Shown piece after piece: positions 4,918 through 48,771 of a stretch of DNA of 64,000 bases. The DNA is taken from contig OZ316892.1 in the NCBI GenBank assembly GCA_973895155.1, positions 19,197,457 to 19,261,456 on the forward strand. Direction: 5' to 3'. The stretch is from Marsupella aquatica. Its lineage: Eukaryota > Plantae > Marchantiophyta. The stretch's first letter is position 1. Every line of letters starts with the position of its first letter. The translations under genes and the position numbers were made by a program. The notes beneath the pieces are model-generated. The model had not been told where the DNA came from, did not search any database, and was given only the letters and a program-made list of their open reading frames with translations.

Positions 4918-5354
4918 GAAGTTGATATGTTTTGAAAGCTCTATGTACATCCATTGGGACAGAAATCTCAGCTTGATAGTGAGAAATACATTCAGAACAG
5001 GTTACACTTCAAAACATGGATAAAACAATGCTTTTGCAGCTGATGCACAAGTTTTTGATGTTTTGTAACGACAGATTCAATCTGCACAATTTTGAACTTA
5101 ACTTTGTTTGCTTCTATGGAAGAATTCATCATATATTTGAATGACATGAGAACAATCAAGTTGCATGCTCCATGCTTGCTAATGTATTTTACATTTCAAA
5201 CTCCAAAGTAAATTTGAGATTAAAGGTGCTGTAATCTTTCTGCAAAAGAGAAGAATTGCATTATAAAAACAAATGGCATTACAATGGTATGAATGGACTA
5301 AATAATGAAGGCTGAGAGCTTTGAAGTGGCCATTTGCTAAATCCACGACCCTGA

Positions 5355-6800: not shown

Positions 6801-7795
6801 GAGAATTATCCTATGAGAGCTTTAATTTGCCTGTCATGAAGAAACAGAGAACTCTAAGAATGAGATCCTATAATTGTTAATTGTTGAGGTCTGAAGAACA
6901 GACAGTCTATCAATTGCAATTGAAACAAGGGCAAGCTTCAATTTGAGCACTTTGTGAGAGCTATTTGTTCTCACATTTTAAGAAATTTTACCAGACCAGC
7001 AAACACTCTGTGTAATTTAAACAATGAATCCAACAATGAGTTCAATAAGGAACAAGTAATGTATAAACCTGAAATGAATTTTGTAGACTCAAGTGCCCAA
7101 TCGAAGTCTAGCCTGGAAAGCGAAGAGTTGCTCCATGTCTCCCCTGTCGATGCAGCCCATCTAGCTTCGCAGATCTGCAGCCCATGTAGCTATCCAACGC
7201 TCTTCATGTCTATGGCAACAAGCTTGTAACAAGTATGAAGGAGAACTAGTTCAAATTGAATTTCAATCAGATTTGATTTAGGTTTGGGACCAGCACACGA
7301 CATTATTTCTGAAGCACTCACCTTTGTCGCAGAGTTTTTGCGATCAAGCCGGGCAGGTCGCAACGGCACTTAGAGTGGATGCCAAGCTTTTGCTATTGGC
7401 TGCATTCAGCACGACCAGTCCGGGTGATTTTCGATCAAGAGCTGAGAAAAGCTTCAGGGCCCGAGCTATGGCATCGGGGTCCAACAGCATTTTTTTGTTT
7501 GTGGCTTGGCTGGAGGCAGTCGCGAAACAATGCGGGGTCCGGGTGGAAAGAAGGCCGGGCCTGGGGCAAGCAGTCCGGTCGGCAGCACAGGCGCCCGGGC
7601 TGGGCGACCGGAAGGTAGGGGGGCAAGGGGTGGGGAGGAGCTGCATGCGACTGTGGCAGGCCCCTGGACCTGCCGCGCCAACAACCTCCCGCAAAGTTGG
7701 AGGCGAGGGCTGCGGGTACAGGCGCTCCGTGCCCCTAGCCACATGGAACCCCTCTCTTAACTACCCCCTCAGTATGCAGGGGTCGCTACCGTATA

Positions 7796-11263: not shown

Positions 11264-12657
11264 CTACAACTGCAAAACCTGCAAAGTAGCACGGTGTCTT
11301 GAGAAACTCTCCAAAGGAATCACTTTGGTAAAGGCATCAGCGGGATTGAGCTTTCCATCAATCTTGACTAGCTTAAAAGTTTTATCAGACACTACTTGCC
11401 TGATAAAATGGTACCTGATATCAATGTGCTTCACCCTGCTATCCATCACCTGGTTAGCAGCCAAGTGAAGAGCACTCTGACTATCACAGTTTAGAGACAT
11501 TTTGCCATGCTCTAAACCCATCTCCGCGATCAACTTGTCCAACCAAATTCCTTCCTTTGTTGCTTCTATTGCTGCTTCTGTAGTAGACTGAGATATACAT
11601 ACTCTGCTTCTGTAGTAGACTGAGATATCCACTTTTGCAAGGTAGATTTCCAACTGATACATCCTCCTCCAAGAGTAAATACAAAACCAGTTGTAGAGCT
11701 CCTTGTATCTAGACAGCCTCCATAGTCAGAATCTATATAGCCAACTAATGTTCTATCTGATCTTGCATCAAATAGTAACCCATAGTCCTGTGTACCCTTC
11801 ACATACCTGAGAATCCATTTCACAGCTTCCCAATGTACCTTCCCTGGATTTGACATGAATCTGCTAACCTTGCCCATCGCTAGGGCCAAGTCAGGCCTAA
11901 TACAAGTCATCAAATACATCAGACTGCCTACTGCTTTCTCATAAGGAATCTTAGCCATTAGACCTTTCTCCACAGCATCCATAGGAGAGAAAGCCGATGA
12001 TAACTTGAAATGTGAAGCTAAAGGAATACTCATTGGCTTACAGTTCTCCATGTTGAATCGTGCAAGTACCTTCCTTGCATACTTGCCTTGACTCAAGCAC
12101 AACTGTCCAGTATCAGAGTTCCTAAAAATCTCCATCCCTAAGATCCTCTTGGCCTTACCAAGATCCTTCATCATGAATTCAACACTCAATTTCGCCTTGA
12201 GACTATTAACCTCAGATTGATCTTTAGCCACAATCAGCATGTCATCCACATAGATCACCAGAATGATGAAATCAAATACATCATTCTTGACTGATTTTGT
12301 ATACACATAAGGATCATACACCATCCTTGTAAAACCTTGAGCAAGCATGAAATCATCAAACCGCTTGTTCCACTGTCTGGGAGATTGCTTCAATCCATAC
12401 AAGGACTTGAGCAATCTGTAAACTAAGTTCTCTTGGCCCTTCTTCATAAAGCCTAGTGGTTGTCTCATGAAGATCATCTCTTCCAAGTTCCCATAGAGAA
12501 AAGCAGTAATAACATCCATCTGATCCATCACCAAATTAAAAAACACAGCAAGTTGACACAAGATCTGAATTATGGAATACTTAGCCACCGGTGAAAATAC
12601 CTCATTGTAATCCACTCCTTTCTCCTGAGTGAATCCCTTGGCAACAATCCGTGCCTT
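11264..12657 (-). pseudogene. Copia reverse transcriptase and RNase H (frameshifted)
   Basis: Motifs KARIVAKGFTQ, QMDVITAFLYG, SLYGLKQSPRQW, YVDDMLI, GYIDSDYGG, STTEAEY, CDSQSA and KHIDIRYHFIR. A local duplication (CTGCTTCTGTAGTAGACTGAGATAT at 11572 and 11604) shifts the RNase H frame. Confidence 0.95.
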
Positions 12658-12980
12658 CACTAGAAGAATCCGAGGTGAACTGAGACCGCAATATATGACT
12701 CATTTTGGCTCATGTGACTTCATTGTGACTCAACGTGACTTGACCCACGCTGTGACCCTTGGAGTTGCAAAAGTTGAGACCAAAAAATGGAAGTCACTAT
12801 TGATACTGGGCTTTGCAACTTGCTTGATACCCATTTGTGACTGATCTGTGACTTTATTGTGGAGTCTAGCCTTGTTTCGACGTGACTGCAATATGACTTC
12901 AGCGAGTCACATCGTAAATCACATACATGACTTACCCGCATTCAACAACGACTAGCGTGTGACTATTTAGTGTCACAGGA
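12658..12980. repeat. CACTA subterminal repeats ((T)GTGACT / AGTCAC motifs in both orientations)
   Basis: Dense GTGAC(T/C) motifs at 12695-12975. Left GAGACCGCAATATATGACTC is mirrored by GAGTCGCATATTTATGAAGGTCTC near the right end (about 30828-30851). Confidence 0.8.
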
Positions 12981-13512
12981 GAGACCAATGGAGACCCTGG
13001 CCCGCGTCACACAACAGAACCATTTGGGACTCTATATACTCATGTTTATAACTAATAAGGATCACATGCAAGTTATAACCATGACTAATGAACACAGAGG
13101 GACAGTTCATAAGAAGAGAGAGCACTCGACATTACAATACATAGAAACCTGATGTTCTAACTTTAGAAATATAACACATTGAATACAAGAAATGAACATA
13201 GCATGAATGACATCCACATGAAACAAAGCATCATATAAGCAGATCCTACATAAAACATTCATAAGAATTAAACACAATCACAATCTTGCTAAAAAATGAA
13301 GATCATTTGAATTCCAATGGAATAGTTTACAATGTGATCAATGTAATTTAGACAAAACAGGAACTCATAATTGATGACTGTAGGATGAGATAACTGAAAG
13401 CACATGCATGATACTATGAATCTCCAAGAGGACATGATTCTTGTACTGTTTCTTGACATCTAAAATCTACATAACATGACTCGCACTACAAACAAATAAT
13501 GGCATGACATTG

Positions 13513-16500
13513 TTATGGATCCTCTATGAACTTGCTTGGCCATAATACCAAAGAACCTGCAGCATCTCCAAGTGTCTTTTGAGGAGGATCATCATTTGTG
13601 TTTGGAATGGGAAGGACAGCTTTAGGTTTCACTAGTAATGTGACTAACACTACTGAATAACCTGGGGGAATCCTCTTGCCATGGAACGTTGTGGAACCAA
13701 CCTGCACTCTGGCAAATCCTACTCGTGTTCCACTCTCATCAACAGCTAACAAGCCACTTTGTCCCTCAGCATTAGGTGCTTTCCCCACTTCCACCTTAGA
13801 TCTTTCTGCCAGCACTGTTCTTGGAGGTTTGTATGAAACCTTTGACGTGGCTCTGCTCCCACCAGCAGACTTGCTTCGTGTGCGCATGCTTCCTCTCTTC
13901 ACAGTAGTGAAGCTAGGCTCAGTAGGTTCCTCTGTTAGGACTGTCACAGTAGCAGGTTCATCACCTGGGAGTGTCATACCAACTAACTCTTTGGTTGGAT
14001 TTATCTCAACAAGAGGCACACCTGTCATTGAGAATGATACATTCTGCAAATCATTTATCTCTGCAATGGAGTCAAGATCTACATAGCATGAATCTGGCTC
14101 AATGGTATCATTGTCATGCTTGCTGATATCCTCATTTGCCCCAACATTGATATCATCCACTCCCTTGCCAATGTCATCCTCATCCAAACATGGTTGACTG
14201 CCCTCTGTCAAACAAGTTGCTTGTACAGACTGCAACTTTGTTGCCTCTAAATTACAGCGAGTATTTGCCAGGTTCTCATACTTCTTCTCTGTAGCACCTG
14301 TCTTATTCTCTATGGACACAACAACCACAATATATGTTACTGAAAATAACACATTCAACAAACAATGTCAATTCAAACTATACATTTAATAATCATATCC
14401 CACACAGTTGTAAAGGCCTTACCTTCAAGCCTACATGTCGTTGGCATGCCAGAAGAGTGCATCGACTTTGCCACCTCAAGTGGTGATGGTGGAACTCCTG
14501 CAGAATTGGAATCAATTTTATCTCTCACCGACACAACAGCTTCCATTAATGTCTTGAAGTTCACATGGAACAAGTCAGTCAATGAATTCAAACGTTCATT
14601 GATCTCTGGAAGACATGTTTCGACAGCCTTCAAACGACCACTTATCTCTGTAAGTGAAGATCCACCTCCCTACATGACACAGGGGTATAGGTTCAATCAC
14701 TCCATATGAAATGTTGGGCAATATATGCACAATCAATGTTATATACAGTGTACACCTGAAATTCAACGCAGGTCATTCAATTACCAATCAGAACTCATAT
14801 AACTTACATGCTTGGAGGATTCAGATGCACCCTCTTGAGCCCGGGTGTTCACAATTTCAGCCCTCAACTCTTCTTTTGAAGGGCTTTGCCCCAATTGGGC
14901 TTTCTGCACATGCATGGCAAACACAAGTTATCGATCAATATTCAGGGAACGTACACTAAAAAACAAAGTTTACATGTAGGGACAGTACACTAAAAAATAG
15001 TACATAGTGTAGCATAAATTACATAGCTAGGCCATTCATTCTTACCAAACGTTTAGCTGTCGGTGCAGTGCCGGTCCTTCCTGTCAGATTAGGGTTCTGA
15101 ACACTCAACCTGGCCTCGGTCATCTGTGAACTCTTCTTTTTTGAAGCATCTGTTACAAAATAAGCTACTAACCTTGCCCACACTTTATCATCACAACTGG
15201 CTGGTGGAGGCATATCTGGCTTCTCCCCACCTTCCTTCCAAGCCTTATGCATTCTCCACCTCTCTTGCTTGATAATTTTACCTGCTGTACTCTCTAGGCA
15301 ACCTATGTCCACGCCATCATCACTGCCCACATAATTCCATTTGGCAGCAACATTTTCACATACAGTCTTCCAATCTTTTGGATGCTGTTTTTTAAAATTA
15401 ATAACACTCACATCTAACCAACGCAATACTTCAGCTTTCAAATCAGCATGCCATCGGTTCTTGCGAGGACACTCAGCATCCACCCATTGTCTCTCATTCA
15501 ACTTTACGTTCCCTTTCTTTGTCACCTCCCCTCGTGCACTGCTCTCGGTAGTACTGGGCGTTGTATTGGCCACCCCTTCATTCACCCTACCTGGGGTTCT
15601 GAAGCCACCTGGGAAAATACAATGCCATTCATGCTTGAGAACTACATATAGCAGAATGGATGACGGCAACATTCAATGCTTCACTTCAAGAAAAATTCTT
15701 CAAACATACATACCTGTAGCTCTGCCTGTAGATGCCTGTGCAGGGACTGCACTCTGAAATTGTTGCGACCCTGGACCACCTGTCCAGCCTAGTACAGGGG
15801 CCGGATGATGTCACTTTCTAGGTATGTGTGTGCAAACATATGTACTGAAAACTAAGTACAAACTGTAGGAAAACAACTGAACATTCACCGACATACCTGT
15901 CCCCCTTCCGTGCTGCATCTGCATAGGGGCATTAGTGAATACTTGAGTCGATGGTTCGACTGTCCAACCTGCACACATACATTTTCTATCATTATACATG
16001 TGCAGAGTCCCCCCCACGTGAATGGACTCCACATATAATGAGTTCTTCCATTGCTGACAAGATCAGACATTACCTGCTCCTCTTCCAGCGTTTGTAGGTA
16101 CTGAATTTTGATATCCCTGCCAATTACCTTCACCACCTTCCCAACCTTGTTCATTCCACGACCCACCACCATCCTCCCAACCTGGTTCAACCCATGTCTG
16201 TCCTTGTGGACATTGCAACTGATCATTACTAGCATTTGCCCAATCAGGTTGGGCAGAATCTGCATGCAATGGCAGGTGGACAGAATTTCATGTTGTCTGA
16301 ATCCAATACATCCCAAACAATGTCAAAAATTGATATGCAGTCTGAAATTCAGGAGTGCCATGCCTTCACAAAGAACTGGCATATAGATATATACTCACAT
16401 CCCCACGGTTGAGGTGGACGTCCATACCCACGAGATTGTGGGTTTGGACCTGCTCTGCCTCTACCACGGGCATAACCTAGAGCTTGCCCCCTGCCATAGT

Positions 16501-17220
16501 ATTGGGCACCAGCCTGGGATCTACCACTACTACCACCTCGCCAACCTTGATCAGAGGTCAGCCCCCCCTGCTGGTATGGTGCATGCACAGGCTTCGAAGG
16601 CAAAACAGAACTGGCAGGACGCTGCATCACATCACCAACTACAATGTCAGGAACTAAGCAAGGTACATATGTGTAGTACTGAACATATGAAACCTCTAAA
16701 CAAGAGTTTTTAACTCAAAACCTTGTTGGGAAAACTACTTACATGTTTCTTTTGGGGCTGCTCTGCAATGTATTCATCTTCATAACCCCCATCCTCATCC
16801 ATTTCCTCTGGAAAATACTCATCATCTGCATCTTCTTGTCTAGTGTCTGCACCCACCTGTGCAGCATCAATGTCATCTCCACATTCTGCCATTGTAGGTA
16901 CGACCTTCTTGCTCAACCTGTCACTCCGACGCACAGGCCCAGAGATAGTGCTGGTCACCCTTCTTGCGTACTCCTTTTGTTTCTTTGAAAATGCTGTGGC
17001 TCTGCGACATTCCAATATGAGAATACAGTCACAATTTCAGTGCCACATTGAACTATTCATGTCACACAAACTCAGCGGAGGGGTGTAGTTGAGAATCGTT
17101 CCCTTACAATTCAGCCACATCCTTTTCCAGATCCAGTTCTGCGATTTTGGCTTTCACGTATGCTCGTTGTTCCATAGCTTTCCTTTCATACTCACACATC
17201 TCTGTGTCACTCTGTTCCAT
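13513..17220 (-). CDS. CACTA TnpA/ORF2-like multi-exon gene (exon boundaries approximate)
   Basis: Starts MEQSDTEMCEYERKAMEQRAYVKAKIAELDL. Several GT-AG flanked short exons. PTTA/Transposase_24-like core at 15019-15672 (PPASCDDKVWARLVAYF...KKKSSQMTEARLSVQNPNLTGRTG). C-terminal Tnp1-like motif FHGKRIPPGYSVVLV...LPIP...TLGDAAGSLVLWP at 13513-13720. Confidence 0.78.
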
Positions 17221-17376
17221 CCTACTGGACCACAAAAACATGTCATCTATGGTCACCCCGTATAACACAATGCAACCACAATCACCAGGCATCCATCCAT
17301 ACATCTGTGTTGCTTCAGAATTACTTTATTACACATCCTTCCCCTCACTAATGTCTATGCAAACAATTCACATTAC

Positions 17377-20300
17377 TCATGGCACAGGCACACTGTTGGC
17401 ATCTGCATCTCTGAATTCGCCTCCTTCAGCAAATGCATCTACCCTTGTCACAGGAATGAAGTCCCCGCTATCATGAACTACAGGCACTTGGTCTGAACGC
17501 CGACGATCAAAGGCACTATGAGAGTGTAAATGAAACTCAAGGTTTGATCCTTCCATCCGGCGTTGCCTGGCCTGTTTATGACACACTACACGCCAACCTG
17601 GGGAGTCTTCCACATCCAGGAAGAAAGCTTGCTCCACCTGACTAGGAAACACAAATGGCTCAGACCATTCGGGCAATTTCCCTCTGAAATTGGCCAGCAA
17701 GAAACCATCGTTGTCTCTCTTCATGGTAGCCCTGTTACCAAGCCAATCCTGCCGCACCCATGAACCTTTCATAAGAATCACAGGACTGGACACCGCCCCA
17801 TAGTCCAGAGCCCATATGTCAACTAATTCTCCCACATATCCCATCTCCATCCAGGCCCTGTCGTGATTGTGGCTCTGTTGCTCAAATACAGTGATGAGCC
17901 CGCAGTCATTCGTCACCCTGTAGGCACTGTCACCATCCTTCACTCGGAAGTGATTCCCATATGCTCTCATCCGTTTGTAAGTCTTCACTTTCAGGCTAGG
18001 GGCATTAGACAGTAGGTAAACATCTGCATCCATGTCTGGGTGGGTCTCGTGATGCTCTCTAATTGCCACTCTGATCCACTCCATGAAACCTGGAAAAGTT
18101 GTTCCTGCAGTGGGATGGGCCGCCTTCAATGACTCATACTCCCTGAACGAACAACCACACAGCATTAGCTTGGGTAAACATGAACAGGCTGAAGGAGAAA
18201 ACCACACGAACACAACATTTAAGCTCATGAACTGGATTATAGCACATGTATGCACTCACTGTATCCAGGGTTCCATCACCACAGTGTTGTGCAATACAAA
18301 GTCATGTGCCAAGTCTCTCATAGATATGGTCAGGTTCTTTGTGGTTGCAGCCCCTTCCAGTACTTCACCTACCACCCCTTCCTCCTCATCAGAATTCCAC
18401 ACCCTGGTCTTCACATGCTCATATTGTGCTATGTATTCGGTCAGAAATCCCAGAGTCTCATCCTTGATGTAACCTTTAGCCATGCTTGCTTCAGGTTTGT
18501 AATATGTTCTCACGTGACCTTTGAGTAGCTTCATGTACCGTTCCAAAGGGTACAACCAACGAGCACTCATAGGCCCAAATTGGTGTAGCTCTTCCACAAC
18601 ATGGACAAGTAGGTGGGTCATGACATCAAAAAATGCGGGAGGAAAATAAATCTCCAGGTCACACAGCACCTGAGCGACATCTTCTATCAGTTGTGGGAAG
18701 TGTGTTTCATCCCAAACCTTCACACAAATACGACGAAACACATCACTGAGTCGCATGATCACAGTACGAACAGGCTTCTGCAACAGGCCCCTCAAGCATA
18801 AAGGCAACACCTGTTGCATCAACATATGGTAGTCATGGCTTTTCATACTACCAAGCTTTCTAGTCATGATATGCTTCTTGAAAGCACTGCCATAGTTTGA
18901 AGGAACCTTCAAAGAACTCAACCTCTGCACAAATAGTTCCCACTCTGTGTCTGTCAGAACATAGGGCGCTTGGTACTTCAAGAGCACATCAGCTCTGTGG
19001 GCATGTGGCCTCAACCAAAGATGGGGTTTCATTCCCCTCTGTTCAAGATCCAATCTCACTGAACCAGTGTCTTTCTCTCCACACAAGAATCTGAGTAGAC
19101 TCTCACAAATATTCTTTTCAATGTGCATAACATCAATGTTATGTTTGCTTGGCTCAAACTCCTGCATCGTTGCAATGCAAAAGCGTCAGGAAATGCCTCA
19201 AGTTTAGTCTCTCTCTTCGAAATGAATGCACATGCTCTGAACCAAAACATGTATCCCAATTAGCATCAACTCCAAGAGGCTTACCCTCCAGTACTTGAGC
19301 TCCAAGTCCAATATGCTCAGTCTTTTTACACCATATCGCTTTATTGGATCACTCACTCCATCTTCCCTGCCCCCTCGTTTGATATAGTCATCCCTCAGTG
19401 CTCCCCACTGCCTGATCTCCTCTTTGGTCACTCGTGCCGGGGGTCCACGTTGCTCAATCTCATTGCCAAAGTGTGCAATCAGTGCCTGTCTTTCTCTGTA
19501 AGGGTGATCTGTCTTCAGAAAACGACGATGGCCCATGTATATCACTTTCTGCAGGGCTCTGGAGTACTCACTGGTGACATTGCGCCCACAGATAGTACAA
19601 GCACAATATCCTTTTGTTGTTTGGCCTGATATCATCCCATGGGCTGGGTAGTCAGCTATAGTCAGAATGACAATGGCTCTAAGGATGAATGGGTTTAACC
19701 TCCCAAGCCTCTGTAGGACATCATATGTGAGAACTCCTTCCTCCCAAAGCTTTCTCAATTCCTCCACTAGGGGAGCCAGAAACACATCTATGTTGGCAGA
19801 TACAGCACTGTCTGGCCCTGGTATCAGTAGGACCATCAGAACAAAAAATCGCTTTGTAGTCATCCAAGGAGGAAGGTTATAATTCAAAATAGTTACAGGC
19901 CAGCATGAAAATTTGTTGTTCTTGTCTCCAAATGGGTTTACCCCATCCAATGACAGCCCAAGTCTGACATTCCTCGGCTCAGCAGCAAATTCGGGATACA
20001 TCTCATCTATGAGTTTCCATTGCCTTGAATCTGCAGCATGTCGTTGTAGCCCATCATCACTTTTCTTGTCAGTTGCCCAAGTCATCATCTCCGAGATGGC
20101 ACGGCTTCTGAACATCCGCTGAAGTCTGGGAATGAGTGGAAAATGACGAAGTACCTTGGCGGGAACCATAGACTTTCCTGAGTTCCGATACCTGTGCTTC
20201 CCACACTTAGGGCATGTCAACGATTCTTTATACTCCTTTCTGAAAAGAACATGCCCATCAGGACAGGCATGGATCGAATCATAGTTCAATCCAAGATTAG

Positions 20301-21108
20301 ATATGCATCTTTTTGCCTCGTACATGTTCTTGGGCAAAATATTACCATCTGGTAGCACAGTTGTTCGCAAGAATGCCAACAACTCAGAAACCAAAACGTT
20401 GGGGACATTGTGGTTGCCGCAAATGTTCAGGAACATGATGACAAATCCCAGTTTAGAACATTTGCTACCGGGGTACAAAGACTTCCTGCCTTCCTGTATT
20501 TGCAGGGGAGAGCCAAACATCCCATCATGCCCAGGGGTTTCCTGCCCTATCTCAAACTCATCAAGAGGCTCTTCGACAGGGGGCACACTTGCATCTGCAG
20601 CCGTATCCTCTTCATTGTCCAGCCCATCATGAAATGCATCCAAGTCTTGGAAGATGTCTCTCACCATCTCTTCCACATGAATTCCTTCGTCACGTGGTGC
20701 TGCCTGAGCACCATCCCGTTGGAGAGCTGACAACCCACAGAGACCAGCTACAACATTTTCAAATGCACCAGGCAGAACCTCACTTGCCCGTCTTGCAGCA
20801 TTGGCAGCATCAAATTCTAACCTCCACTCCTCGTCGGAAGAATCTTCCTCTGCAGGATCATTCCAAACTCGATGTCGTGGATCTCTTCCATGAACCGCGA
20901 TATGCCGCCAAACCTCATTCAGACCCCTGGTACGGGATCCTTGGCAGATTGCACAAGGACATCTCATCCTACTGGCTCCTGAAAGTCTGGTTCGTAACCT
21001 TTCACGCTGCCAAAGCTTATTATCATGGCGTGATATCCTTGTGGGATGATGCAAAGGCAGTGCCTGTGCCCTGGGCTGGGTCTGGGGAGGGTGGTGACCA
21101 GGGTGCAT
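17377..21108 (-). CDS. CACTA TNP2/TnpD transposase, 3 exons (21108-19285, 19161-18260, 18142-17377), about 1163 aa
   Basis: N-terminal CPCAIC; IHACPDGHVLF...CPKCGKHRY; LRHFPLIPRLQRMF; RNVRLGLSLDGVNPF; ADYPAHG; YMGHRRFL; DVMHIEKN; MKSHDYH; FPPAFFDVMTHLLVH; RWLYPLERYM (DUF4218); EPFVFPSQVEQAFF (DUF4216). GT-AG introns join in frame with no stop. Confidence 0.93.
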
Positions 21109-21541
21109 TGTAACAGGCTGGGAGCTCTGCAGTCATGGACAGCAGTGAACAAGGATGCCTAATGGTGGTATTTGTGTTCCATATATCCCTGACTGTATCT
21201 GCCAAAAGAGTTAACATAACGTGTACTAAATTCTCACAAACCCTAAACCACCCCAAAAGAAAAAAACAGGTTCGCAAGTAGTGTACCTATTGTCAAGTGA
21301 ATGACACAAAATTTCTAAATGTTGGAGGGTGTCACCACCTCCTCCGCTGTCCTCAAATGTACCGCCTCTGCATGTACGTTTACAGTGACACCCCCAGGCA
21401 GCAGGAAACAACAATCCGCCAACAGTAAAATAAGCCCAACTGCCACCAACCATAACAAGGTACATTAGTTCAAAGATCACATTTATTTCAATGATCTGAT
21501 TTATACAAAAAAACTTGTGTCCAAACTGATGCTACTACTCC

Positions 21542-22420
21542 TCACTCTGATTCAGAATCGCTAATGACCCATTCCTCACTTGTTGTCTCATAGTCCTCTC
21601 TGTAAGGATCCTGACCCTTCCGTGGCCAGGCCTCAAAAAGATCATAGTCCATTGGGTTTTGACGCTTCCCAGCTGCTACTGATTCCACAAGCCAAGCATA
21701 TGAAACCACAAACACATTATGGGACATGACATAAAAGCGAATGTCTCCCTTCCCAAACTTGCGGCAGGCTTTGGGATATGACTTAGTAATGACATGAGTG
21801 GTGTCCTCTGTTATATTCTCCTCCACTGTCCCACCTAGGTCAAGCACTGTGGACTTGTACACTTTGCACTTAACCTCTCCAATTCCCGCCTCCACAAATA
21901 CCATGCTCAGCCCTTTCAGAATGGGGGTTGGTTGCTTCGTCTCCTCAGCCAACATACTCTTCAGCCTTGTAGAGCTCTGTCCTTTGTTGAGTACAGGTCC
22001 ATATTAGAGATCAGCAAGCCGTGCCTTTGCTTCCCAGACTTCTTGTTCAGCCCAAGCTGATGCAGTAGCTTCTTCATCCTCCCACAACTCATATTGCTCA
22101 GTATCCTGTACAATCTTATGTGCTATGGAATCTGTGATCCAAGAGGCCTCAACTACTTTTAGGCCTTGCTTAGTAATTGCAGAATTCATGTAGGACCATG
22201 ACCACTTCTTTATCACTGATAGCCATGTCCCTGCAACAACATGTGTAGTCTCTGGAGTGATGTCCTGAACTACAGTGCCATGGAGCTCAGAGAATCGTTT
22301 CTGTACAGTTGGCCAATGCACTTTGGTCAACCCATGCTGGCCATGGACCAAAATCGCTCTGACCCCTGTAAACACTGCTGGGTGGTCACACTTTCTACGT
22401 TTACCAGGCTCCATGTACAC
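21542..22420 (-). pseudogene. Tandem BRCT-domain ORF (DNA polymerase lambda-type BRCT x2) with a single in-frame TAA
   Basis: ORFs 22004-22420 and 21542-21955 are in the same frame, separated only by TAA at 22004-22006. Each has BRCT hallmarks (F/L-x-G-V/L, GG/HG-TV, TTHVV/TTHVI, W-I/L-x-D/E-S, Y-x-L). Confidence 0.85.
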
Positions 22421-23007
22421 ACACCCTACGTGATGACAGTGAATTTTGGAAGAATGGGTTCACCTGACAATACAAGGACAACAAAATTCCTGCTTTTTGA
22501 GTTGATCTGGCCCACTGGTGCTCAGGTCCGATTTTGATAGGTACAAGGGATATGTCACACAATACGTACTAGGCACCTGCACGGATGCAGGACATTGTTT
22601 GAATATATACTACAAAATCCATATCCGTGGTGAAATGAAGTGCAACCAACTTGTCATGGCACATACATATTTTGTTGTAAAGGAGGATACATTCAATGAC
22701 AAACTTATAGGGCAATTTGATTAATTGCATGCCTGATAATTTATACGCTTACAACTTAGAAGTCCTGTTTTAATTTAGCAGTGTGATGAAAGTGTTTATG
22801 AAAATGACCACTCAGCCTAAATACTTCCAAGAAGGCTTGTAAGGATAAGTTTGTATAGGCATGTACCCAGCCACTGACGCCAGAGCACAAGATAAGTGCT
22901 GCCTATATAAACTCGCCTACCCAACTCCTTTTCAAAATTGGAATCTCTGCAATCTCAAAAAATAGTACATCCACATCAGGTGCACTGTGCATGTACAATG
23001 TTCAGCT

Positions 23008-23688
23008 TCACAGCCAAGATATGTGATCTCTCACAGGAGTGCGCGAGGTAGGATCAATGGCATGGCGATGACAATAAAATATCCATCGATCAACACCATG
23101 TGCAGAGTGATCATAGATTTCTCTGTCACAAGCATAACCCTCTGCTTGATGATCTTTCAGGCAATGATAGTGCCACATAGTGGGACACCTAGCACAGTGG
23201 ACTATGTCAGTCCAGTAGTCATCATCATGCTCACCACATGCCTTGCACCTATGAAGTGGGCAAGCTGTGGCATGAGCAGGCAAACACTCAAAACAGAAAA
23301 ATCTCACACAAAAACGGTCTGGACATTTCCTAACATTTGCTGCAGCATCAACAGAGCCCTCATAGGACCCCAACTTCCCACACTGTGCACACTTAGCCTG
23401 CTTCTCCAAACAATCAGTGCACATCCAGTCTCCCTGGTGTGTTGACGGGAGGCCCACCCCTGGACAGTTGTTTTCTGCAGCAAGGTCAGACTCCGGGTTG
23501 AGGTGGAAATGCCTCATGCAAGGGCCCTCACAAATGACCAGGCCCCCACCATCGTCACAAATGGCACAACAATGAGCTGCCTTCTGGAAAATCTGACTTG
23601 CAGAGAAGTTAGTAGCATCTGCCCCAAGTACACCTGTGTTTCTCACCTCTGTCACACGCTTTTTGGCTTGAATTTTAGGCCGTGCCAT
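23008..23688 (-). CDS. EDM2-type composite PHD finger protein (stand-alone), 226 aa
   Basis: CAICDDGGGLVICEGPCMRHFH...WMCTDC...CAQCGKLGS...CPLHRCKAC...CARCPTMWHYHCL...IFYCHRHAIDPTSRTPVRDH. Order and tail match the PHD region of plant EDM2 as I recall it (CAICDNGGEILCCEGSCLRSFH...CPLHKC...CRRCPKSYHRKCL...IYCQEHEIDEELLTPVRDH). Intact ORF with a basic N-terminus. Confidence 0.88.
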   Translation of the reverse strand: MARPKIQAKKRVTEVRNTGVLGADATNFSASQIFQKAAHCCAICDDGGGLVICEGPCMRHFHLNPESDLAAENNCPGVGLPSTHQGDWMCTDCLEKQAKCAQCGKLGSYEGSVDAAANVRKCPDRFCVRFFCFECLPAHATACPLHRCKACGEHDDDYWTDIVHCARCPTMWHYHCLKDHQAEGYACDREIYDHSAHGVDRWIFYCHRHAIDPTSRTPVRDHISWL

Positions 23689-23699
23689 GCCTGCGCATG

Positions 23700-23843
23700 A
23701 GATAGACTCTACAATTTAGCAGACTGCACAGAAAGTAATATATATTTAGCATTTAAGGTACAAAGGCATTTAGATAGACTCTACAATTTAGCAGACTGCA
23801 CAGAAAGTAAAATATATTTAGCATTTAAGGTACAAAGGCATTT
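23700..23843. repeat. 72-bp tandem duplication just upstream of the PHD ORF
   Basis: AGATAGACTCTACAATTTAGC...GGCATTT at 23700-23771 and 23772-23843, one mismatch. Confidence 0.95.
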
Positions 23844-24458
23844 GCTACTGCAATGAATTGGAATGGCCACACAAGGATGCAGAGCACACATACTTTTGGT
23901 ATGTTGAGCCCACACACAAAACTGATCCCCTAATACAATTTCTCCACCAACACCTCAATTTTAATTGTGGCTATGATTCACCAAAGGAGATCTGCAACAA
24001 CATTTCATGCATTTGAATCACATACAATAGTCGTGACATGTAAAACAGGCATTCTTCGAAGAGGATTGGTATGAAGCAGTGTCATAAGGGTTGAAATTTA
24101 TACATCCTAAATAGGTTATGATAGTGGCTGAGACAAATAAGTGAGGCATAAATCATTTTGCATATTATCACATGGCCCATTAATTCATTCAACGTTGCAA
24201 TGTTCACCAGGTTAAAGCAGTCATGAAAGCAGTCTTTCAATAGAGACTTTTATGCGAGTTTGCTAGCCTCTTAAATTAGGATATTTTGCTTAGTGCAGGC
24301 ATAATAGGATATAAGTTATATACTGTTGACCCTAAACCCTGGACCCAAAATTGCTCATACATCAAAATTTTAAGTAAATATCCTCTGTGTTGAAGTCAGA
24401 GTGTTAAGCTATAGGTCAATGGTATCTGGTCTGTGCATGCGGTGTGACAAGTGGTCCT

Positions 24459-24908
24459 CTAGAGCATGTGATCCAAACATGTGTAGACACCAAAGTCACC
24501 GGTGGTGGGGTCTGGGAGGGCAGGACAAGTGACATCACCAGGCACACTGCAGGATGGCGAGTGGTTCCAAATGATACATTGTGCTCTATGCAAAAATCGG
24601 CATCCAAGAGAACGGTCATCCAATTCTGGGCCAGAAGCCCTACAGGCAGGACAGTCATATTGGCAACTGTGTACACACCCTTGGCACCTAATTTGTGGCG
24701 GGTCATGTACAAGAGACACAAATACCAAGGATGTCGGGAAGGGTACTGAAGCAAGTAGAGGCCGGCTGTAGTTGTTCCTGGAAACAACAGGGTACTCAAA
24801 GTACCATGCAGACTGGGCTGGAAGGATCCCAAGTCTGACATACTCAAGGCGCAACATCTCTGCCTTGCGTGCAAGTCGCACATGTTCAGCGTTGCGGGTC
24901 CTCACCAT
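24459..24908 (-). CDS. Hypothetical Cys/His-rich (putative Zn-binding) CACTA accessory protein, 149 aa
   Basis: ATG-initiated and co-oriented with the other cargo ORFs; contains CQGCVHSCQYDCPAC...CRFLHRAQC...TCLDH. No family recognised. Confidence 0.45.
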   Translation of the reverse strand: MVRTRNAEHVRLARKAEMLRLEYVRLGILPAQSAWYFEYPVVSRNNYSRPLLASVPFPTSLVFVSLVHDPPQIRCQGCVHSCQYDCPACRASGPELDDRSLGCRFLHRAQCIIWNHSPSCSVPGDVTCPALPDPTTGDFGVYTCLDHML

Positions 24909-25903
24909 AAGTGTTGCTTTTGTTGTGATGTCCTCTGTTCACGTCCTTTGATGAGCAAGGTGAGCAGGAGGTCGACTTGCCTCGCCAACAGCAACCACCT
25001 AAACTAATCAGTTCCCACTCAACTACAGGTCATAGTATACACATAGCATGAAACGTGCATAGTACATATTTGATTCTGAGTTTATGAGTTTCCTAAGACA
25101 AAGAGCTTGGTGATAAACCCATATTCTCGATGGACATGTATATCAATCGTATTAAAATCCTGTTTTTTCATCCAGAAAGACCGAAAGTCTCACCTTGCAG
25201 GTTGCAGCAGAGAGAAAATTCACTGGTTGTCGTGTTGTGCAAGTGAACCTCCACTGATGCCCCCGGTGTAGCCCCTCAGATGCAGGTGACACTTACCAAC
25301 TCCCAAGTTGCCTGGTCTAACAGAAAATGCTTATATCTTCAGAACTTTATAGAGCAAGTACATGATCACATACTTCTGGATCTATTCATATTTGGAACTC
25401 TTGCCAACTACAACTCCCATTATGCACAAGCTCACATCAACAGAGAAAAATACAGAATGCATACTTACTATGGCTCTAAGCACCTTCACTACCTTGTTGA
25501 ACCCAGTCCTGAAGTCTTTTCAGCGTGTTTGTTGTGCTGTCTCCTTTGGCACCCAACACCTTAGTCCTTGATGTAACAGAATGCGATTTTACAAGTTAGA
25601 TGCTTTGGAACCTTCTATGGTCTTAGCTGAATTGATGTCATCGTAAGTGGTGAAAGACAAGGAAGACGAAAGCTGGTTGAAGAGCTGTGGACAACACACT
25701 AGCATGAAGTGCTTCAACCAATCCACTGCCAAACGGAACTCTTACACAGTCACATTCTTTCAGTAAACAGAAACTCAATCAAACTTCATAATCAAAGTAC
25801 AGACTCTGAAGGACCAAAGGAGGATGTTGTGAGTTTCTCTGTTGTTTAATGTGTTACCCTTCTAGTTTCGAAGTTAGCAAATGCTGAATAATGTGTCTAC
25901 CAG

Positions 25904-26243
25904 ATCTTCGAAAAGAAGCCCACCACAATTAAGAACTTTGGTATCTGGGTGAGGTATCAGAGTTGTACAGGTTATCCCAACATGTACAAGAAATATTGTG
26001 ATACCACATTAAACAACCACACAGCAGATGTATGATGAGATGGCTTCTTGTCATAGAGTTCGGTTCCCTTGCATCCAGATCATCAAGACTACGACAGTCC
26101 CTGTCTCTCTGTGCAAGCGAGAAAGTACCAAGCAGTTCCATGATTCAAAGATCAAGTTCCCCTTGACGTACCGCAAGATTCAACCTCCATCGCGAAAGCT
26201 AAAGACGACTTACAAGGCCACCAAGCCCAACACATTTGTTTGA
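25904..26243 (+). pseudogene. RPL18A: Captured last exon of 60S ribosomal protein L18a (eL20), frameshifted
   Basis: After acceptor CTACCAG: [37 protein letters not shown], then a frameshift near 26015-26025, then [22 protein letters not shown]...[18 protein letters not shown]...[19 protein letters not shown]. This is the plant RPL18a C-terminus. Upstream exons are absent. Confidence 0.93.
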
Positions 26244-28082
26244 GTAGTGCGGGTGTAGGTTCCCAATTTTGAAACAATTTGGCTCATTTTATGTCCCGAG
26301 GGACTCCAGGAGTTTATGTATTGAGTTTCTAGGTCAAGATGCTTAATATAAGGAAATTCAATTATCACCTCGTTCCCAACTTCTATTAATTGAATATACA
26401 CAAGCTGGAAGCAAGAAGACAAGCCACAATCTAGCATCTTAGCCAAACACAATCGTCCCGACAAAGCAAAACTCAGCTGGACAGAAGTCACTCGGATCCA
26501 CAAAAAATTGAAGATTCACCTCCAAGCCGGAGGCCGATCACTTCAGTACAGCAGCTTCTGGACGGAACAAACTCTGCTCAGCCCCACAAAAACACAAATG
26601 TTAAGGCTCCAAGTCAGAGCTCACAAACAGAAACTCAGATAAATAACATTCAAAATCTGTCCAGGTTTGTGCAAAGTGTACATATTCATTCTTCTGGAAT
26701 GAACACGCAATGCATACATCGCCTAGACACAGTCATTATAAATCATTGGGCAATTGGGGACCACTAAGCAGGTGTGTTCCTATTTCGAGGCTACAAGAAA
26801 GGATAGAGTGACACCAAACTGAAGAGTACACCAAAAGAAAAACAGCAAGAACCAAAGTCAATAATGTGTGGATATTTTGCACATGGGAAGTTCCCCTGAA
26901 GAAGCACCAGTTGCTAACATTGTCACCCGAACCACACCCAGTTTATTACCTCAATGTCTTCAGCCTCAATATCCAATCCTCAGCCCCCTGGTGCTTCCGT
27001 GTTTGTTCTGAAAATTTCTGTGATGAAATAATTATTCAATACATTCAATAGCAAAGAGAACTCAATCACAAAAGAAAAATAGTTAGTGTGAATGCTAATT
27101 TCTCAACACTTAACTAAATTCAAACCACCAATTCAAGTAGTAAGTTTCAAAAACTTGCCTTTACATGAAGAGAAACCAATTGGCCATGCATGTTACTAAA
27201 GCAATAAACAAATAATTAGGCTCAACCCCGGGCTCAACACACAGGCAAACTACTCGAAACATGCTGCTGAGAAGTAACATTTTTTGAATGTCAGACTATG
27301 TGTAAGTGCCATGATCGTGCTCCTACGTTTCACAAGGAGGGCTGGCCCGAAAGGGAGAAGCAACAATGTGGAGTCTATACACGTAGCACAAATCCCAGTT
27401 TAGAAGGGTGGATGAAGTTCAGACAAGAGTTCAGAACTTGCCATTTGAGATTGCCAATCTGAACTTCACATTCAGACAGGACTTCATCCAGTTCAGGAGT
27501 TCAGATAGGAGTTCAGACAATCTGAAGAGGACTTTGGACTTGAATGAGGGACAGCGTGGCCATATAGTTATCCTTGTGGCCTTCAGCTGCGTGTCTCAGG
27601 CTGAATTTCACTTTCCAGTTTCGAGAGTTCTGAAGGTCTAGTTTTAGTAACTTCCTCCTGACTCGACTTGGGAGCATTCTCCCTATTTGCTAGCTTGTAG
27701 TTAGCTTTGACTCCTGTGAGCTTAGTTGACGACCCTCTTGAGATATTAACAATTAGAACAAACACAAGTTGTCAAGACAGATTCCACCGGAGCAAAAAGT
27801 CCAAAATCAGGTGAAAGAAAACCTAAGGAAAGTCCATAAGAACGAAAGTAGGAAGGCAGGTGCACGGGCCACCGAGAAAAGTAAAGGATGCATGTGATTA
27901 GTGGGGAGGGATCTTAGCAAAAATAGGGGAAAGCAAGGGAACTTGCTGCTAAAATCAGCTGAACGATTGCACGGTTCCTATAAATTTAGTGGACCTTAAG
28001 GCCGTCTGTTCAGCCCCCCACCCCATTGCCAGAGCACGGGGCACAAGGCATGTTCTGATACAGGGAGGAGCAAAACAGTCAT

Positions 28083-29128
28083 GTCAAGCAAGAAATGTGG
28101 AGAGACCAATCAGTAAGCAAAAATAGGGGAGAACATACATACATGATCAGCAGCAGCAGGAAACAAGAAAGATGATTTTGGGTGGCATCTTAGGGTCGGG
28201 GACACCACTGCAACACCGGGACTTAGGATATGAGTTGTTCTTAATCTGCTAGTAGCATCCGGCAGGCCGGCGACCCATGGCAAAAGGGCAGAGCAACAAT
28301 CCGCTAAAACTACCGAGTCTCACCTTTGCGCTACTGACTGTCACCTTTGTCCAAGGTAGCTAGTAATAGCAAGTTGAAGTCCCGCTCCAAGTTGTCGGCT
28401 TCCACTCCAAGCTCCCTAAAAGATTGTGGCCTCAGGTCCAAGTCGTTAGCTCGCACGCGCAACTCCCTAAACCTACACACAGCGGAAGCTTAGCTCACCA
28501 ACAACTTGCAGAAACAATGACCTCCCCTCTGAAACTGATAAAAACACCTGAATACAAATAGTGAAGCACGAGGACAGAACAGGGAGAAGCGTTTTGCAGT
28601 TTGGGACGACAATGCTAGGAGTGTATACACTTCGGGCAACAGGGAGGTCCAATAATAGTTTGAATCTGACGGATGAAGCTCTAGGCGAATGAGCTCCAGG
28701 AGATTGGGTGCATGATTGAGTAGGCAATTGTAACAGCAGGCACCTGGCGATTGAAGGAAGCAGCATTCGGCAATGGACCTAGGCAGCTCGCGAATTTTGC
28801 TCAGCAGCGATGTCACCTAGACCCTAAACACGCAATGCATACATCACCTAGACAACTATACTTGCAGCCACGAGGTGAGTCCGCGATAGGGGATTGAAGG
28901 AAGCAGCAAGTCAAGCAAGAAGCGTGGAGAGACCAATCAGTAAGCAAAAATAGGGGAGAATAGACATACATCAGCAGCAGCAGGAAACAAGAAAGATGAT
29001 ACTCTGTTCCATCTTAGAGTCGGGGACACTACTGCAACACCGGGACTTAGGATATGACTTGTTTTTAAACTGGAGATAGCATCCAGCAGGCCGGCGACCC
29101 ATGCCAAAAGGGCAGAGCAGCAATCCGC
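28083..29128. repeat. ~220-bp dispersed direct repeat inside the CACTA (about 28083-28305 and 28910-29128)
   Basis: GTCAAGCAAGAA..GTGGAGAGACCAATCAGTAAGCAAAAATAGGGGAGAA...CACTGCAACACCGGGACTTAGGATATGA...GGCCGGCGACCCATG.CAAAAGGGCAGAGCA.CAATCCGC is present twice. Confidence 0.9.
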
Positions 29129-30904
29129 CATGTAGCGATAGGCGAGAGCAGCGATTACGACGATGAAAGATGGTCAAAGCTGAAGCAAAACCCCTAAAGA
29201 TGCAGCTTGGCCATACTCTCTTTCCTCACCTCATAGCGCTAGGCATTCAACCTCCCTCTTCAATGAACCTCACAACAGCTTGAAGGTCGATAGATTTTAC
29301 CTCGTCTCCTGAGCAGAAACGTCTGCATTAGCTAAACAGAGCCCGGAACAGAGCTATCGCATTTAGCCTCCCGACTCCAAAATTGAACGCAACACAACCT
29401 CCAACTCCCAATGGCAGCTCAGTAGGTTGATCAGCTCGGTCAATGCAGGTCAGTCGACCTCAATAGCCACACTAGAAGCTCACCGCAAGTCACTCAAAGG
29501 TCAGACTAGAAGCTCCGCCGCCTTCACACCGTAGCAAAAAACAATGAGACCAATATCGAGCAAGGCGACCCTGTTTGAATATTTGGCGACCATCAGGCTC
29601 CACCCCTCCTTTCTCGCTACCGTTCCCCCATGTGATGGTTAAGCTTCTGAGGACACAATCAATCGCACAAATGTAGCTTAAAGCAGGACCTCACTAAGCA
29701 GACTATTGGTTAGGACCTTATAGACATAGAGATAGATAGGTCAATGCAACCTTACTTGGGCCGATGCAGCATGTCTCTTCACAATGTGAAGCAGCGCAGC
29801 ATTCCTCCACCTAGCTCGCAATGATCCTCCGCCTTGCTTGCAGTAACCAGCCTCCGCCTAGCTAGTTTGCACTGTCACGGCTGCAACTTTTTGTGCAATG
29901 ACTTGGCCCTCCTACCAACTACGAGCTCCCAAAAGTATGTCGAGCAGATGTACACTCAGGCACCACCTCGTAGAGCTCAACTCCAAGTCGGCAGCTCTCA
30001 CTTGAAACTCAATAGCAGCTTAGCTCACCAGCAGGTTGAAAAGCGACAATGGACTCCCCTCAAAACTGATTGGCAGACCTCCACACTGACGCTCGTAGCA
30101 GGCCCAATCCTAAACACATTTGCACCCTAAAGTCCAGTCGCGCTCAAACACTTTCAAACGACCCTGCAGGAAGTTCGCGAAGAGTGCAGCTGGAATGAAG
30201 GTCGTCGACTCCCAATTTCCCTCGCAAAACCAACCTCTGCGGCACACTGACCCTGAACACTTAGGGCAAGTAGTACCCCCAAAATCTCTCGCAAAACCAA
30301 CCTCCAAGGTACACTGACCCTGAGGGAAAGTAGTACCCCTCACATGTGGGCAGCCATCGAGTGACTTAGCAAACAGGTTGGTTTGGACATAAAAGAACCA
30401 ATGCAAATGACTTAGCAAAAAGTTCAATGTGGGGAGAGTGCACTTTGGTCAAGAACAAGGCCAAATATAGTCAGGTATGAATCCACATTATAAGTGAAAG
30501 TACCCACCATTCTGATGAAAACCCCCATATTTATACCCATTATATTTGGACTTATTGAACCATGAGTGTGCAATATGTAGTTGCACCGGGAGTTGCATAT
30601 TAGGGATTGGCATCCGAAATTGGCTAATGGGGTATGCATGCTGACGGAATTTTAAAAAATGATGTCCAATTCATATTGCACTATTGTGGAGTAACTAACA
30701 TAACTTACCTATTTCTTACTTACTAGTGTTACAATAGCGACATTGGATAAAGTTGTAAGCATGACTTCCCACAACCTCACCAAAACTTAGTTGGTATGAT
30801 GTAACTAACATGACACCCACAAACTTGGAGTCGCATATTTATGAAGGTCTCGCACAAGTCACATAGGGGAGGGTCTCAGAATGGGTGGTTTTCTTCTAGT
30901 GCTT

Positions 30905-33583
30905 GTAGATCTTATCTCCACCCTCTGAAGGACTGTCCTTCAACTTGTAAATCCACTTGCTGTCCACCACTTGCTGACCTCTTGGAAGCTCCACCAGCTC
31001 CCATATCTTGTTGTCACTCAAAGATTGCAATTCCCTCTGCATTGCTGCATTCCACTCATGCCTCACTGTATGAAGAAGGTTCTCCTTCTTCCAAGATCAA
31101 AGCCTTGTCATCATCATCAGGTGCAATGTCAATATCATCTAGCTTAGATGAGTCTGCCCATTGACCATACCTAGTAGGAGCTCTAGTAGAACGACTGGAA
31201 GTTCTTCTAGATGACTCAGGCTAATCTGCTGCTGTTGCAGGTTGAATTTGAGGTACCTCGGCAACAATCTGCTCCTCTTGTTCCATCATAAGAACCAGCT
31301 CCAAGCCCGAAGCTTCTCCATCTCTCCTTCCATGAACAGCATCATGACTAATCTCCCCCTCAACCCGATCCGGGATGAGAGATTTTCCCTTGTCAGTATG
31401 GGAGTCCTGAGAATTCTCCCTTTCCTTTGATGATCTGGATTCATTAAAGGACACATCTCTACTGACAATTAGTTTACAGGTTACTGGATCGCATAACCTA
31501 TAACCCTTCACACCTTTTTGATAGCCAAGGAAAATGCACTTCTTTGACTTGGACTCTAGCTTGGATCGAAGTTGGGAAGGTGTAAGCACATAAGCATCAC
31601 ATCCAAAAATCCTCAGATGTGAGTAATCTGCTAGACGCCCGTACCTCATTTCAAATGGCGTCTTTAATCCAATAGAACTAGATGGAGAAAAATTTACCAA
31701 ATAAGCTGCAATATTGACAACTTCAGCCCAAAACTCATGTGGTAAGCATGATTGACTCAACATACTCCTCGAGCGGTCCAACAATGTTCGGTTGAGTCTC
31801 TAAGAAATACCATTCTACTGAGGAGTATAACTTGTTGTGAGATGGCGGGTAATCCCCTACTCCTTACAATACATTCCAAATTCCATGGAACTGTATTCAC
31901 CATCGTTATCCGATCGAAGATATCTCATCTTATTACCAGTCTGATTCTCAACTTGGGCTTTCCACTCCTTAAAAGTGGCAAAAACATCAGACTTATTGTG
32001 TAGAAAGTATATCCACAAGAGTAATCGTCTATGAACGTGACATAGTATAATCATCCAGAATGTGAGGGAGTAGGGGCTGGACCTCACACATCACTATGTA
32101 CATACTCAGGTACCTCCTTGCTGGTGTGAGTTCCAACTCCGAAGGGTTTCCTGTGCTGCTTCCCTAGCACACAGTGCTCACAAAATTCCAACTTACAAGA
32201 TTGCAAATTAGAAAGTAATCCTTTCTTCTGAAGAATAACCAAACTTTTTTTACTCATGTGGCCCAAACAGAAGTGCTAGAGCCGGGCCGTCTACTCATGA
32301 GATAAGGTTACATTGGCTTCATCACAGACTACACTGTCCTCCAAAACGTATAGATTGCTAAATCTCTTTCCCTTCAATACAACTTTAGTACCAGTTGAAA
32401 CCTGAAGGACACCATTAGCAGAACTCCACTGATGGCCATTTGCTTCTAAAACTCCAAGTGAAATGAGATTTTTCATCATGCTAGGAATATATCTCACATT
32501 CCTCAACGTTCTTACAGCACCATCAAACTGTATCTGAAATCTTACAGATCCAAGTCCAACAACTTGACATAGGATTCCATTTCCCATCAACACTGAACCG
32601 TTAGAATCTGTGTAAGAACTTAAAAAATCTCTCCTAGAGCAAATGTGAAAAGTACATGCACTATCTAGAATCCAGTCATCATTACCTGGATTTGACACTA
32701 CGTTGAGAGCATAACCTTGACATCATAATATGTCATCATCATCGAGTAAATCTACCTCATGCGAGCTCGATGCTGCATTAGCAGAGGCAGTAAGGACCTT
32801 TACTCAACAATCCCTTTTCACGTGGCCAGGCTTGCCACAATTCCAACATGCAAGAGGCTTCCTCTCTTGTGATTTCCCCCTGGATTTAGATCTCCCCCGT
32901 GATGTAGATCTAAACCTGTTCTATCCATTTGAGCGTTGCGCTGCTCTCCCCTGGTTCACGTTCAGTGTAGTGCCAGAAGAAGATGCTGTCTATGATTGAC
33001 CCAGCTTCTTCTGAGCATCATCAGACAATAAAGAGCTCACCACCTCATTATACGAAATGGACTTCAGATCTCTGTACAAGAACACTTGTTTCAAGCCCTG
33101 ATATGATGGCGGTAAGGAGCTTAGCAGAAGCAAGGCCTTATCCTCATCTTCAACTCCTTTTCCCAGGTTTGACAGATCCACCGCTAGATTATCAAATTCA
33201 TCCAGGTGATCCTGCATCTTGCTCCCTTCCTTGAGCCTGAGGCTCATCAAGAGAGACTTCTTGTACAGCCGGTCTGACGCATCTTCCCAGTAGTACTTCT
33301 TTCTAAGGGCCTTGAAGAGTGATGCACAGTCGTCATAATCATCCAGTTTCTTGATGATATGCGGCTTCAGATAAAGCATCACTGCATTAACAGCAATCAC
33401 CTGCTCTTGTCTCCACTGCTTCACAAAAATCTCCTCCTCTCCATCATACTGCTATCGCGATGAAAGCAGATGAGCTAAGCCCATGGCCTGTAGAACACCC
33501 TTCACTTGCTTCTCCCACAGCAAGTAATCAGTACGACCATTGTATTTTTCCACCTCAAACTTCACTCCTCCAAATCTAGCCAT
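30905..33583 (-). pseudogene. Copia gag-protease-integrase region with stops, frameshifts and deletions
   Basis: gag start MARFGGVKFEVEKYNGRTDYLLW; LLLLSSLPPSY; zinc knuckle CWNCGKPGHVKRDC (about 32805-32850); protease WILDSACTFH; HHCC remnant GHMS...CEHC; integrase LRSDNDGEY, FWAEVV, FGCDAY, KCIFLGY, SRDVSFNE. Confidence 0.93.
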
Positions 33584-48624: not shown

Positions 48625-48771
48625 CTGATTTGACAGAGTAACACTCTAGTATGCTTCAAAATATTGTTCCCTTTCCCTCCTTCAGAATAACTTCCCAACA
48701 CCAGTGATGGAATTCATTCTCATGCCCACTATGTGCCATGTTAGAGAAAAAATAAAAATAAAAAATATGCC

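Follow-up and report, generated by a model that had tools for sequence, protein, structure and literature searches.

The window analyzed here, a 64-kb stretch of Marsupella aquatica DNA, contains a complete CACTA/EnSpm transposon with an ORF that codes for two BRCT domains; judging from conservation at the protein level and from the open frames of sibling copies, this ORF represents a maintained accessory gene that is broken in the present copy. We regard it as quite possible, if short of probable, that the intact gene specifies an element-carried, polymerase-free double-BRCT protein, likely captured from DNA polymerase lambda (Pol lambda) and then duplicated, which docks on the end-joining machinery of the host.

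The element occupies positions 12658..30901 on the minus strand (18,244 bp) and sits within a Copia LTR retrotransposon, parts of which are recognized by Pfam on either side of it (RT at 11566-12657; SH3/gag pieces at 31221-33451). Both of its ends are formed by CACTAGAAGAA, which starts at 12658 and whose inverted copy finishes at 30901. The 3′ terminal inverted repeat (12658..12668, plus strand), perfect over 11 bp, and its 5′ counterpart (30891..30901, minus strand) are each bordered by the target duplication CTT (12655-12657 on the 3′ side, 30902-30904 on the 5′ side). The transposase (17377..21108, minus strand) is of the TnpD type, with Transpos_assoc, Transposase_21, DUF4218, and DUF4216 regions in a frame that is open for 1163 aa once two GT-AG introns (19284-19162 and 18259-18143) are spliced out; Transposase_21 and DUF4218 are matched at E values of 2e-70 and 6e-27, TAD and DUF4216 are matched weakly, and the nearest Atlas clusters are mostly streptophyte. 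With inverted ends that start with CACTA, a 3-bp target duplication, and a Tnp2-type transposase, the element is a member of the CACTA/EnSpm group. Putative exons of a TnpA-like second gene (13513..15672, minus strand) include a weak match to Transposase_24 at 15019-15672 (E = 1.5e-4, below the Pfam cut-off), and the motif AGTCACA occurs seven times in 1.2 kb of the element ends (a raw count, without a shuffle control). The order on the minus strand is a Cys/His-rich ORF, an ORF with three PHD-like fingers, the BRCT ORF, the transposase, and then the TnpA-like exons. The first-pass annotation of this DNA had placed the BRCT domains next to a transposase; more exactly, they lie inside a complete CACTA element that carries it.

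The double-BRCT ORF (21542..22414, minus strand) runs for 290 codons from an ATG at 22414 to a TGA, with no intron needed, in a minus-strand frame (22459->21542) of 306 codons with one internal stop. When the 1.1-kb region was shuffled, an open frame of at least 150 codons arose in 24 of 1000 shuffles and one of at least 290 codons in 0 of 1000. The predicted protein comprises a basic N-terminus (a predicted NLS), BRCT1 (22082..22378, minus strand; residues about 13-111), a helix, a flexible linker, BRCT2 (21632..21928, minus strand; residues about 163-261), and an acidic tail; the ORF ends 29 codons past BRCT2, and the lyase and polymerase domains are absent. Both repeats score above the PF00533 cut-off of 21.3 bits, the Pol lambda-like BRCT2 with 33.4 bits and the more diverged BRCT1 with 24.8 bits. 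An AlphaFold model of the read-through protein, made with 11 sequences (mean pLDDT 72, pTM 0.43), displays two confident, separate BRCT folds (VIA Z up to 14), a helix at residues 114-138, a disordered linker at 134-161 (pLDDT under 50), and a disordered acidic tail. By profile match and by the predicted fold, a beta-sheet with three helices, both domains belong to the BRCT superfamily. Translation, Pfam, and the model bear out the earlier description of two same-frame BRCT domains split by one TAA, and the linker and motifs quoted with it are present in the minus-strand frame; of the acidic stretches described behind each repeat, the one after BRCT2 is disordered and the one after BRCT1 corresponds to the predicted helix. 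The two repeats of the window copy are 24% identical over 99 residues, with no likeness found between them at the DNA level. None of seven window proteins had an exact-sequence match in the protein collection, and the Atlas matches for BRCT2 all lie under 0.9.

Codon 137 of the window ORF is a premature TAA (22004..22006, minus strand). The region is present, in full or in part, in nine public sequencing runs, one of which may be the window's own source; five contain at least half of the sampled words. The stop and the variants were checked in four of the nine (three organism labels, three studies), X6-X9 (shares 0.10-0.24) being left out. In all four, position 22006 is G at the entire covering depth, corresponding to CAA (Gln), in 1, 9, 9, and 3 contigs (22 in total), and the window's own base has zero depth; one 380-nt sibling contig differs from the window at this place only. 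The TAA at 22006-22004 is private to the window copy among the sibling contigs of these runs. The first-pass guess of a CAA>TAA change is in agreement with this, and the sense codon whose presence at 22004-22006 in siblings was to be checked is found in the 22 contigs. Contigs drop rare variants, and therefore other stop-bearing copies may exist; a further possibility is that the TAA is an assembly error in the window. The sibling ORF is open from ATG to stop, and an intron that would remove the stop is unneeded, as the siblings read through. Two single-BRCT proteins, the other arrangement considered, are ruled out by the CAA of the siblings together with the intact double-BRCT homologues described below. 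The window copy itself would yield only BRCT1 and its helix.

A 2.6-kb stretch, 60% of which is made up by the BRCT and PHD ORFs, is represented by 137 to 2545 contigs per run at identities from under 90 to over 99%, and such numbers of contigs at varied identity indicate a repeated family (contig depth was not taken as copy number). Neither ORF is hit by any of the 12 indel rows listed, from 15 in all, a sparing with p of about 3e-4 if the indels are nine independent events. The other ORF variants, among the 40 of 268 rows listed, comprise 4 synonymous and 5 amino-acid changes, counts from which selection is not evident. Low-depth sibling contigs skip parts of BRCT1 by deletion. Separately, run X1 has a contig of high depth that passes over the linker (21886-22028), with indeterminate letters in between; a second subfamily whose linker has diverged would account for this.

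A search with the BRCT2 half over 1.84 billion representatives recovered 17 matches, the top six and one more of which are members of the same family; P0023 was added to them by a profile search. Six clusters are intact double-BRCT proteins of 264-321 aa with 25-60% identity to the window protein (P0002, 60%; P0023, 55%; P0003, P0004, P0005, and P0020, 25-30%). These homologues match BRCT families and no other Pfam domain, and they come without an informative name or accession. P0001 and P0008 span BRCT2 only and may be fragments. With the window copy, the intact proteins make up an unnamed double-BRCT family of seven clusters, one member of which resides inside an intact CACTA element. Identities to P0002 amount to 67/99 residues in BRCT1, 9/25 in the linker, and 61/99 in BRCT2, and those to P0023 to 59/99, 6/25, and 59/99, respectively; the domains are hence far better conserved than the linker, which argues for a maintained gene. 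Columns specific to the family include W-x-x-V-x-x-x-W-S-W in BRCT1 and Y-x-x-A-C in BRCT2. Scans of metagenome and viral contigs with the family alignment returned none among 10 candidates each, and a scan of contigs with P0020 returned one among 34 candidates, L001 (1404 bp), a 98% relative of P0020. This contig has a TAG (389-391) at a Gln codon of the inter-BRCT linker, its cluster mate P0020 being intact; the two independent stops in the same linker, in the window and in L001, may be due to chance, or split forms may be tolerated. No other parts of an element were found on the 1.4 kb of L001, and transposon context is established only for the near-identical siblings of the window copy.

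Profile comparisons suggest that both domains probably derive from Pol lambda, whose N-terminal BRCT is their best outside match. The comparators were mostly drawn from matches of the query, and the set is without plant REV1, LIG4, XRCC1, and CPL domains. In profile-profile comparisons, repeat 1 and repeat 2 of the family score 122 against each other, above every outside class, and as each other's closest match they point to an old duplication within the family; the duplication, which the first-pass annotation took to be TE-specific, is family-specific by that score. Against the family profile, Pol lambda sets score 92-104, BRCA1-type first repeats 75, TOPBP1 61, a triple BRCT without a name 56, and FCP1 50; with BRCT2 alone, the BRCA1 type (80) ties with a 62-row angiosperm Pol lambda profile (81). 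For the family HMM, the highest-scoring outside domain is that of a Mesotaenium protein, at 63.6 bits, against 39.7 for the best domain not of the Pol lambda kind. This protein is itself of the Pol lambda type by score (82 bits on a plant Pol lambda HMM), its gene model being without a polymerase. That HMM, built from 61 proteins (62 rows) gathered with a single Pol lambda fragment as the seed, gives 37.3 bits for window BRCT2, 35.7 for snail Pol lambda, 25.0 or less for other classes, and only 11.0 for window BRCT1. Pol lambda is also the pairwise best score for 14 of the 16 family domains. Further, a basic N-terminus before the domain is common to both: P0002 and P0023 begin with MAP and then basic residues, at a distance from the domain similar to that in plant Pol lambda, 51 of 61 of which start with MAP or MPP. 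The helix 1 pattern of Pol lambda, G-I/V-x-x-x-basic-x-x-hydrophobic-aromatic, is in register in window BRCT2.

Other methods draw this line less sharply. Sequence searches of the PDB rank BRCA1 and Rtt107 (by whole-chain scores over several domains) and, in one search, REV1 above human Pol lambda, and fold searches, which do not separate BRCT classes, place PARP4, XRCC1, and TopBP1 at or above the Pol X domains. In two trees, the second omitting 17 of 52 rows (long branches, near-duplicates, and two single-domain pieces), the deep forks are unsupported and BRCT2 does not form a single clade in either. AU tests reject neither a grouping of the family with plant Pol lambda (p = 0.36) nor one with the BRCA1 type (p = 0.12), and this is as far as the phylogeny proposed as a check on the class goes. 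The Pol lambda likeness first noted for BRCT2 is thus upheld by profile, pairwise, and reciprocal scores, but trees, AU tests, and folds do not settle its class.

The BRCT of human Pol lambda binds the Ku70/80 bridge, with R57 and L60 as key contacts, the isolated domain is recruited to damage via Ku, and dead Pol lambda hampers gap filling in human cells unless R57 is changed (PMC12056208). In Arabidopsis, the Pol lambda BRCT binds LIG4/XRCC4, and the enzyme has been implicated in mending transposon excision sites (PMC4444747, citing other work, Roy 2013 / Huefner 2011). At the positions of human R57/L60/F61, window BRCT2 has K/V/Y, a conservative set, and BRCT1 has H/T/V, in which the contacts are not kept. 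Arg occupies the R57 position in 61 of the 62 plant Pol lambda rows, and K or R does so in 5/8 BRCT2 and 1/7 BRCT1 domains of the family; the L60 position is hydrophobic in 3/9 family BRCT2 domains, and the triad is complete in 2/8. The window protein differs from Pol lambda in lacking polymerase and lyase, in having two BRCTs rather than one, and in an invariant Arg that is replaced by Lys or lost.

The first-pass annotation suggested an adaptor or inhibitor of repair, and such a role stays conjectural. We propose as a possible, still tentative mechanism that the protein acts as a decoy on the end-joining complex. A BRCT would have been captured from the 5′ end of the Pol lambda gene and then duplicated, and the basic N-terminus would take the product to the nucleus. 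There, BRCT2 would take the place of Pol X on Ku70/80 (or on XRCC4-LIG4) while bringing no polymerase, so that the empty donor site is joined more slowly; a second contact, possibly with a protein of the element, would be made by the diverged BRCT1. Slower joining would favor repair of the gap from a template, as in P and Mu elements, whereby the donor copy is restored and copy number rises.

Among the alternatives, we consider it unlikely that the BRCTs have changed partners altogether and now form a repurposed scaffold, for instance one that works with the PHD protein to target chromatin or to evade silencing, or else bind DNA ends directly. Such a change would suit the degenerate Ku positions of most members, with the family-specific columns kept, as well as the PHD ORF in the same element and the chromatin or protease functions of the CACTA accessory genes described in the accessible texts; yet the pocket by which chromatin-reading tandem BRCTs bind phosphopeptides is absent. 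The phosphate pocket motif of BRCA1-type tandem BRCTs consists of S/T-G plus T/S-x-K. The T/S-x-K part is found in 0/16 family domains versus 3/3 BRCA1-type controls, and S/T precedes Gly in 1/15; the family lacks this hallmark of canonical phosphopeptide-binding tandems. Also against such a scaffold, the two domains fail to match the arrangement of a canonical tandem, the rmsd to solved tandem BRCTs being 13-19 Å (in the model with a pTM of 0.43). The BRCT pairs of BRCA1, MDC1, and TOPBP1 likewise place two domains in one chain and score similarly for the second half of BRCT2; the window protein differs from them in the lack of the phosphate pocket, in a 50-residue linker of helix plus disordered segment, and in having no fixed packing in the model.

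It seems distinctly unlikely to us that the protein is a positive adaptor, which would tie the transposase complex to Ku/XRCC4-LIG4 and so speed up the sealing of excision sites and of the 3-base gaps at insertions. Two domains with different surfaces, joined flexibly (pTM 0.43, linker pLDDT under 50), suit a bridge, and there is a precedent in Paramecium, where Ku is purified together with PiggyMac and cleavage depends on Ku80c (PMC4148214). However, the protein is without a catalytic part, a catalytically dead Pol lambda has an inhibitory effect in human cells (PMC12056208), and few members of the double-BRCT family retain the Ku triad. It is improbable, too, that the ORF is passenger cargo, that is, a double-BRCT gene that this CACTA family picked up, in Pack-CACTA style, from a host in an under-annotated plant lineage, the protein-level conservation reflecting the host gene: gene capture by CACTAs is common (PMC8978399), the element context is established only for near-identical siblings, with no transposase on L001, and the sibling variants do not demonstrate nucleotide-level selection, but the whole sibling ORF is open and spared by indels, the homologues lack a named or annotated genome record, and the distant relative occurs in intact and nonsense copies (P0020 versus L001), as expected of repeats.

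Returning to the decoy, the Ku-PiggyMac pair offers a functional analogue in that a transposase system is tied to end joining; in Paramecium it is the host Ku that is specialized, whereas the window element would supply its own repair-binding protein (PMC4148214). Plant CACTA/EnSpm elements (TnpD plus TnpA) share with the window element the CACTA ends, the 3-bp target duplication, the TAD-tnp2-DUF4218-DUF4216 architecture, and, putatively, a Transposase_24-like second gene. Their extra domains include Transposase_24, Peptidase_C48, SANT, and a few others (PMC8978399); in contrast, the window element carries, upstream of its transposase, individual ORFs for a double-BRCT, a triple-PHD, and a Cys-rich protein, and BRCT goes unmentioned in the accessible part of that account. 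Closer in organization are the Plavaka elements of red algae, in which PAG1-3 are likewise stand-alone accessory ORFs beside an EnSpm-type transposase (bioRxiv 10.1101/2025.02.11.637652), and the multi-ORF En/Spm elements of Chondrus, 16-20 kb, which are likewise large and bear accessory ORFs (PMC6431247). The accessory genes of these red-algal elements are of the methylase/SET and ParB/oxygenase kinds, unlike the BRCT of the window (PMC6431247; bioRxiv 10.1101/2025.02.11.637652), and BRCT and PHD have no mention in the accessible text on Bostrychia (bioRxiv 10.1101/2025.02.11.637652), nor does BRCT in that of PMC5751038. Our search found no literature joining BRCT with CACTA, its scope being outside subscription journals, Repbase, and supplements, which could contain such an element.

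The widest form of the decoy proposal is possible, though less likely than not: a plant CACTA lineage would have turned the Ku-docking domain of host Pol lambda into its own doubled, polymerase-free end-joining modulator, which steers repair at its excision sites, for example toward a restored donor copy. If true, eukaryotic transposons would have an equivalent of the anti-NHEJ proteins of viruses. A conserved gene with a DNA-repair domain would represent a different kind of contact between element and host from the chromatin, methylation, and SUMO accessory genes described in the accessible literature, and it is relevant to the ways in which cut-and-paste elements multiply and to the question whether they control the repair of their own breaks. 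The protein is small, with defined residues, and hence testable in a plant excision assay; should it block end joining, it might serve as a tool to favor templated repair in plant editing.

Besides the BRCT ORF, the element has two further candidate accessory ORFs upstream of the transposase. One (23008..23688, minus strand) codes for three NSD-type PHD-like fingers, recognized by weak Pfam matches under the curated cut-offs, and is possibly a second accessory gene for a histone reader. It is open, and in sibling copies it has many substitutions and no indel among the rows listed. Upstream of it, a Cys/His-rich ORF of 149 codons without a Pfam family (24459..24908, minus strand) is a possible third accessory gene, coding for a zinc-binding protein. 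An acceptor-like AG lies 2-19 bases upstream of the start codons of the transposase (21108), BRCT (22414), and PHD (23688) ORFs on the minus strand, a sequence feature that points to alternative splicing, in which a common leader would be joined to separate mRNAs. An in-frame fusion of the BRCT ORF to the PHD ORF or the transposase is rejected by the stop codon that each ORF has of its own; among the 66 longer matches from 7997 scored candidates, there were neither fused forms nor family members carrying a polymerase, which is weak evidence. A 72-bp tandem duplication is present at 23700-23843, and the 5′ part of the element (25000-30700, ~5.7 kb) is without a long ORF and contains an internal duplication (28080-28304 and 28907-29128, 84-89%).

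Outside the CACTA element and its Copia host, the window has other recognizable features. A PIF/Harbinger-like pair at 4054-6821 consists of a DDE_Tnp_4 ORF (5355-6821, minus strand) that faces a second ORF (4054-4917, plus strand). At 46042-50511 on the plus strand, a LINE-like ORF1 with DUF4283 (728 aa) precedes an ORF of 588 codons that matches no family, and at 52828-53487, also on the plus strand, a host gene for thymidine kinase (PF00265) has its first exon.
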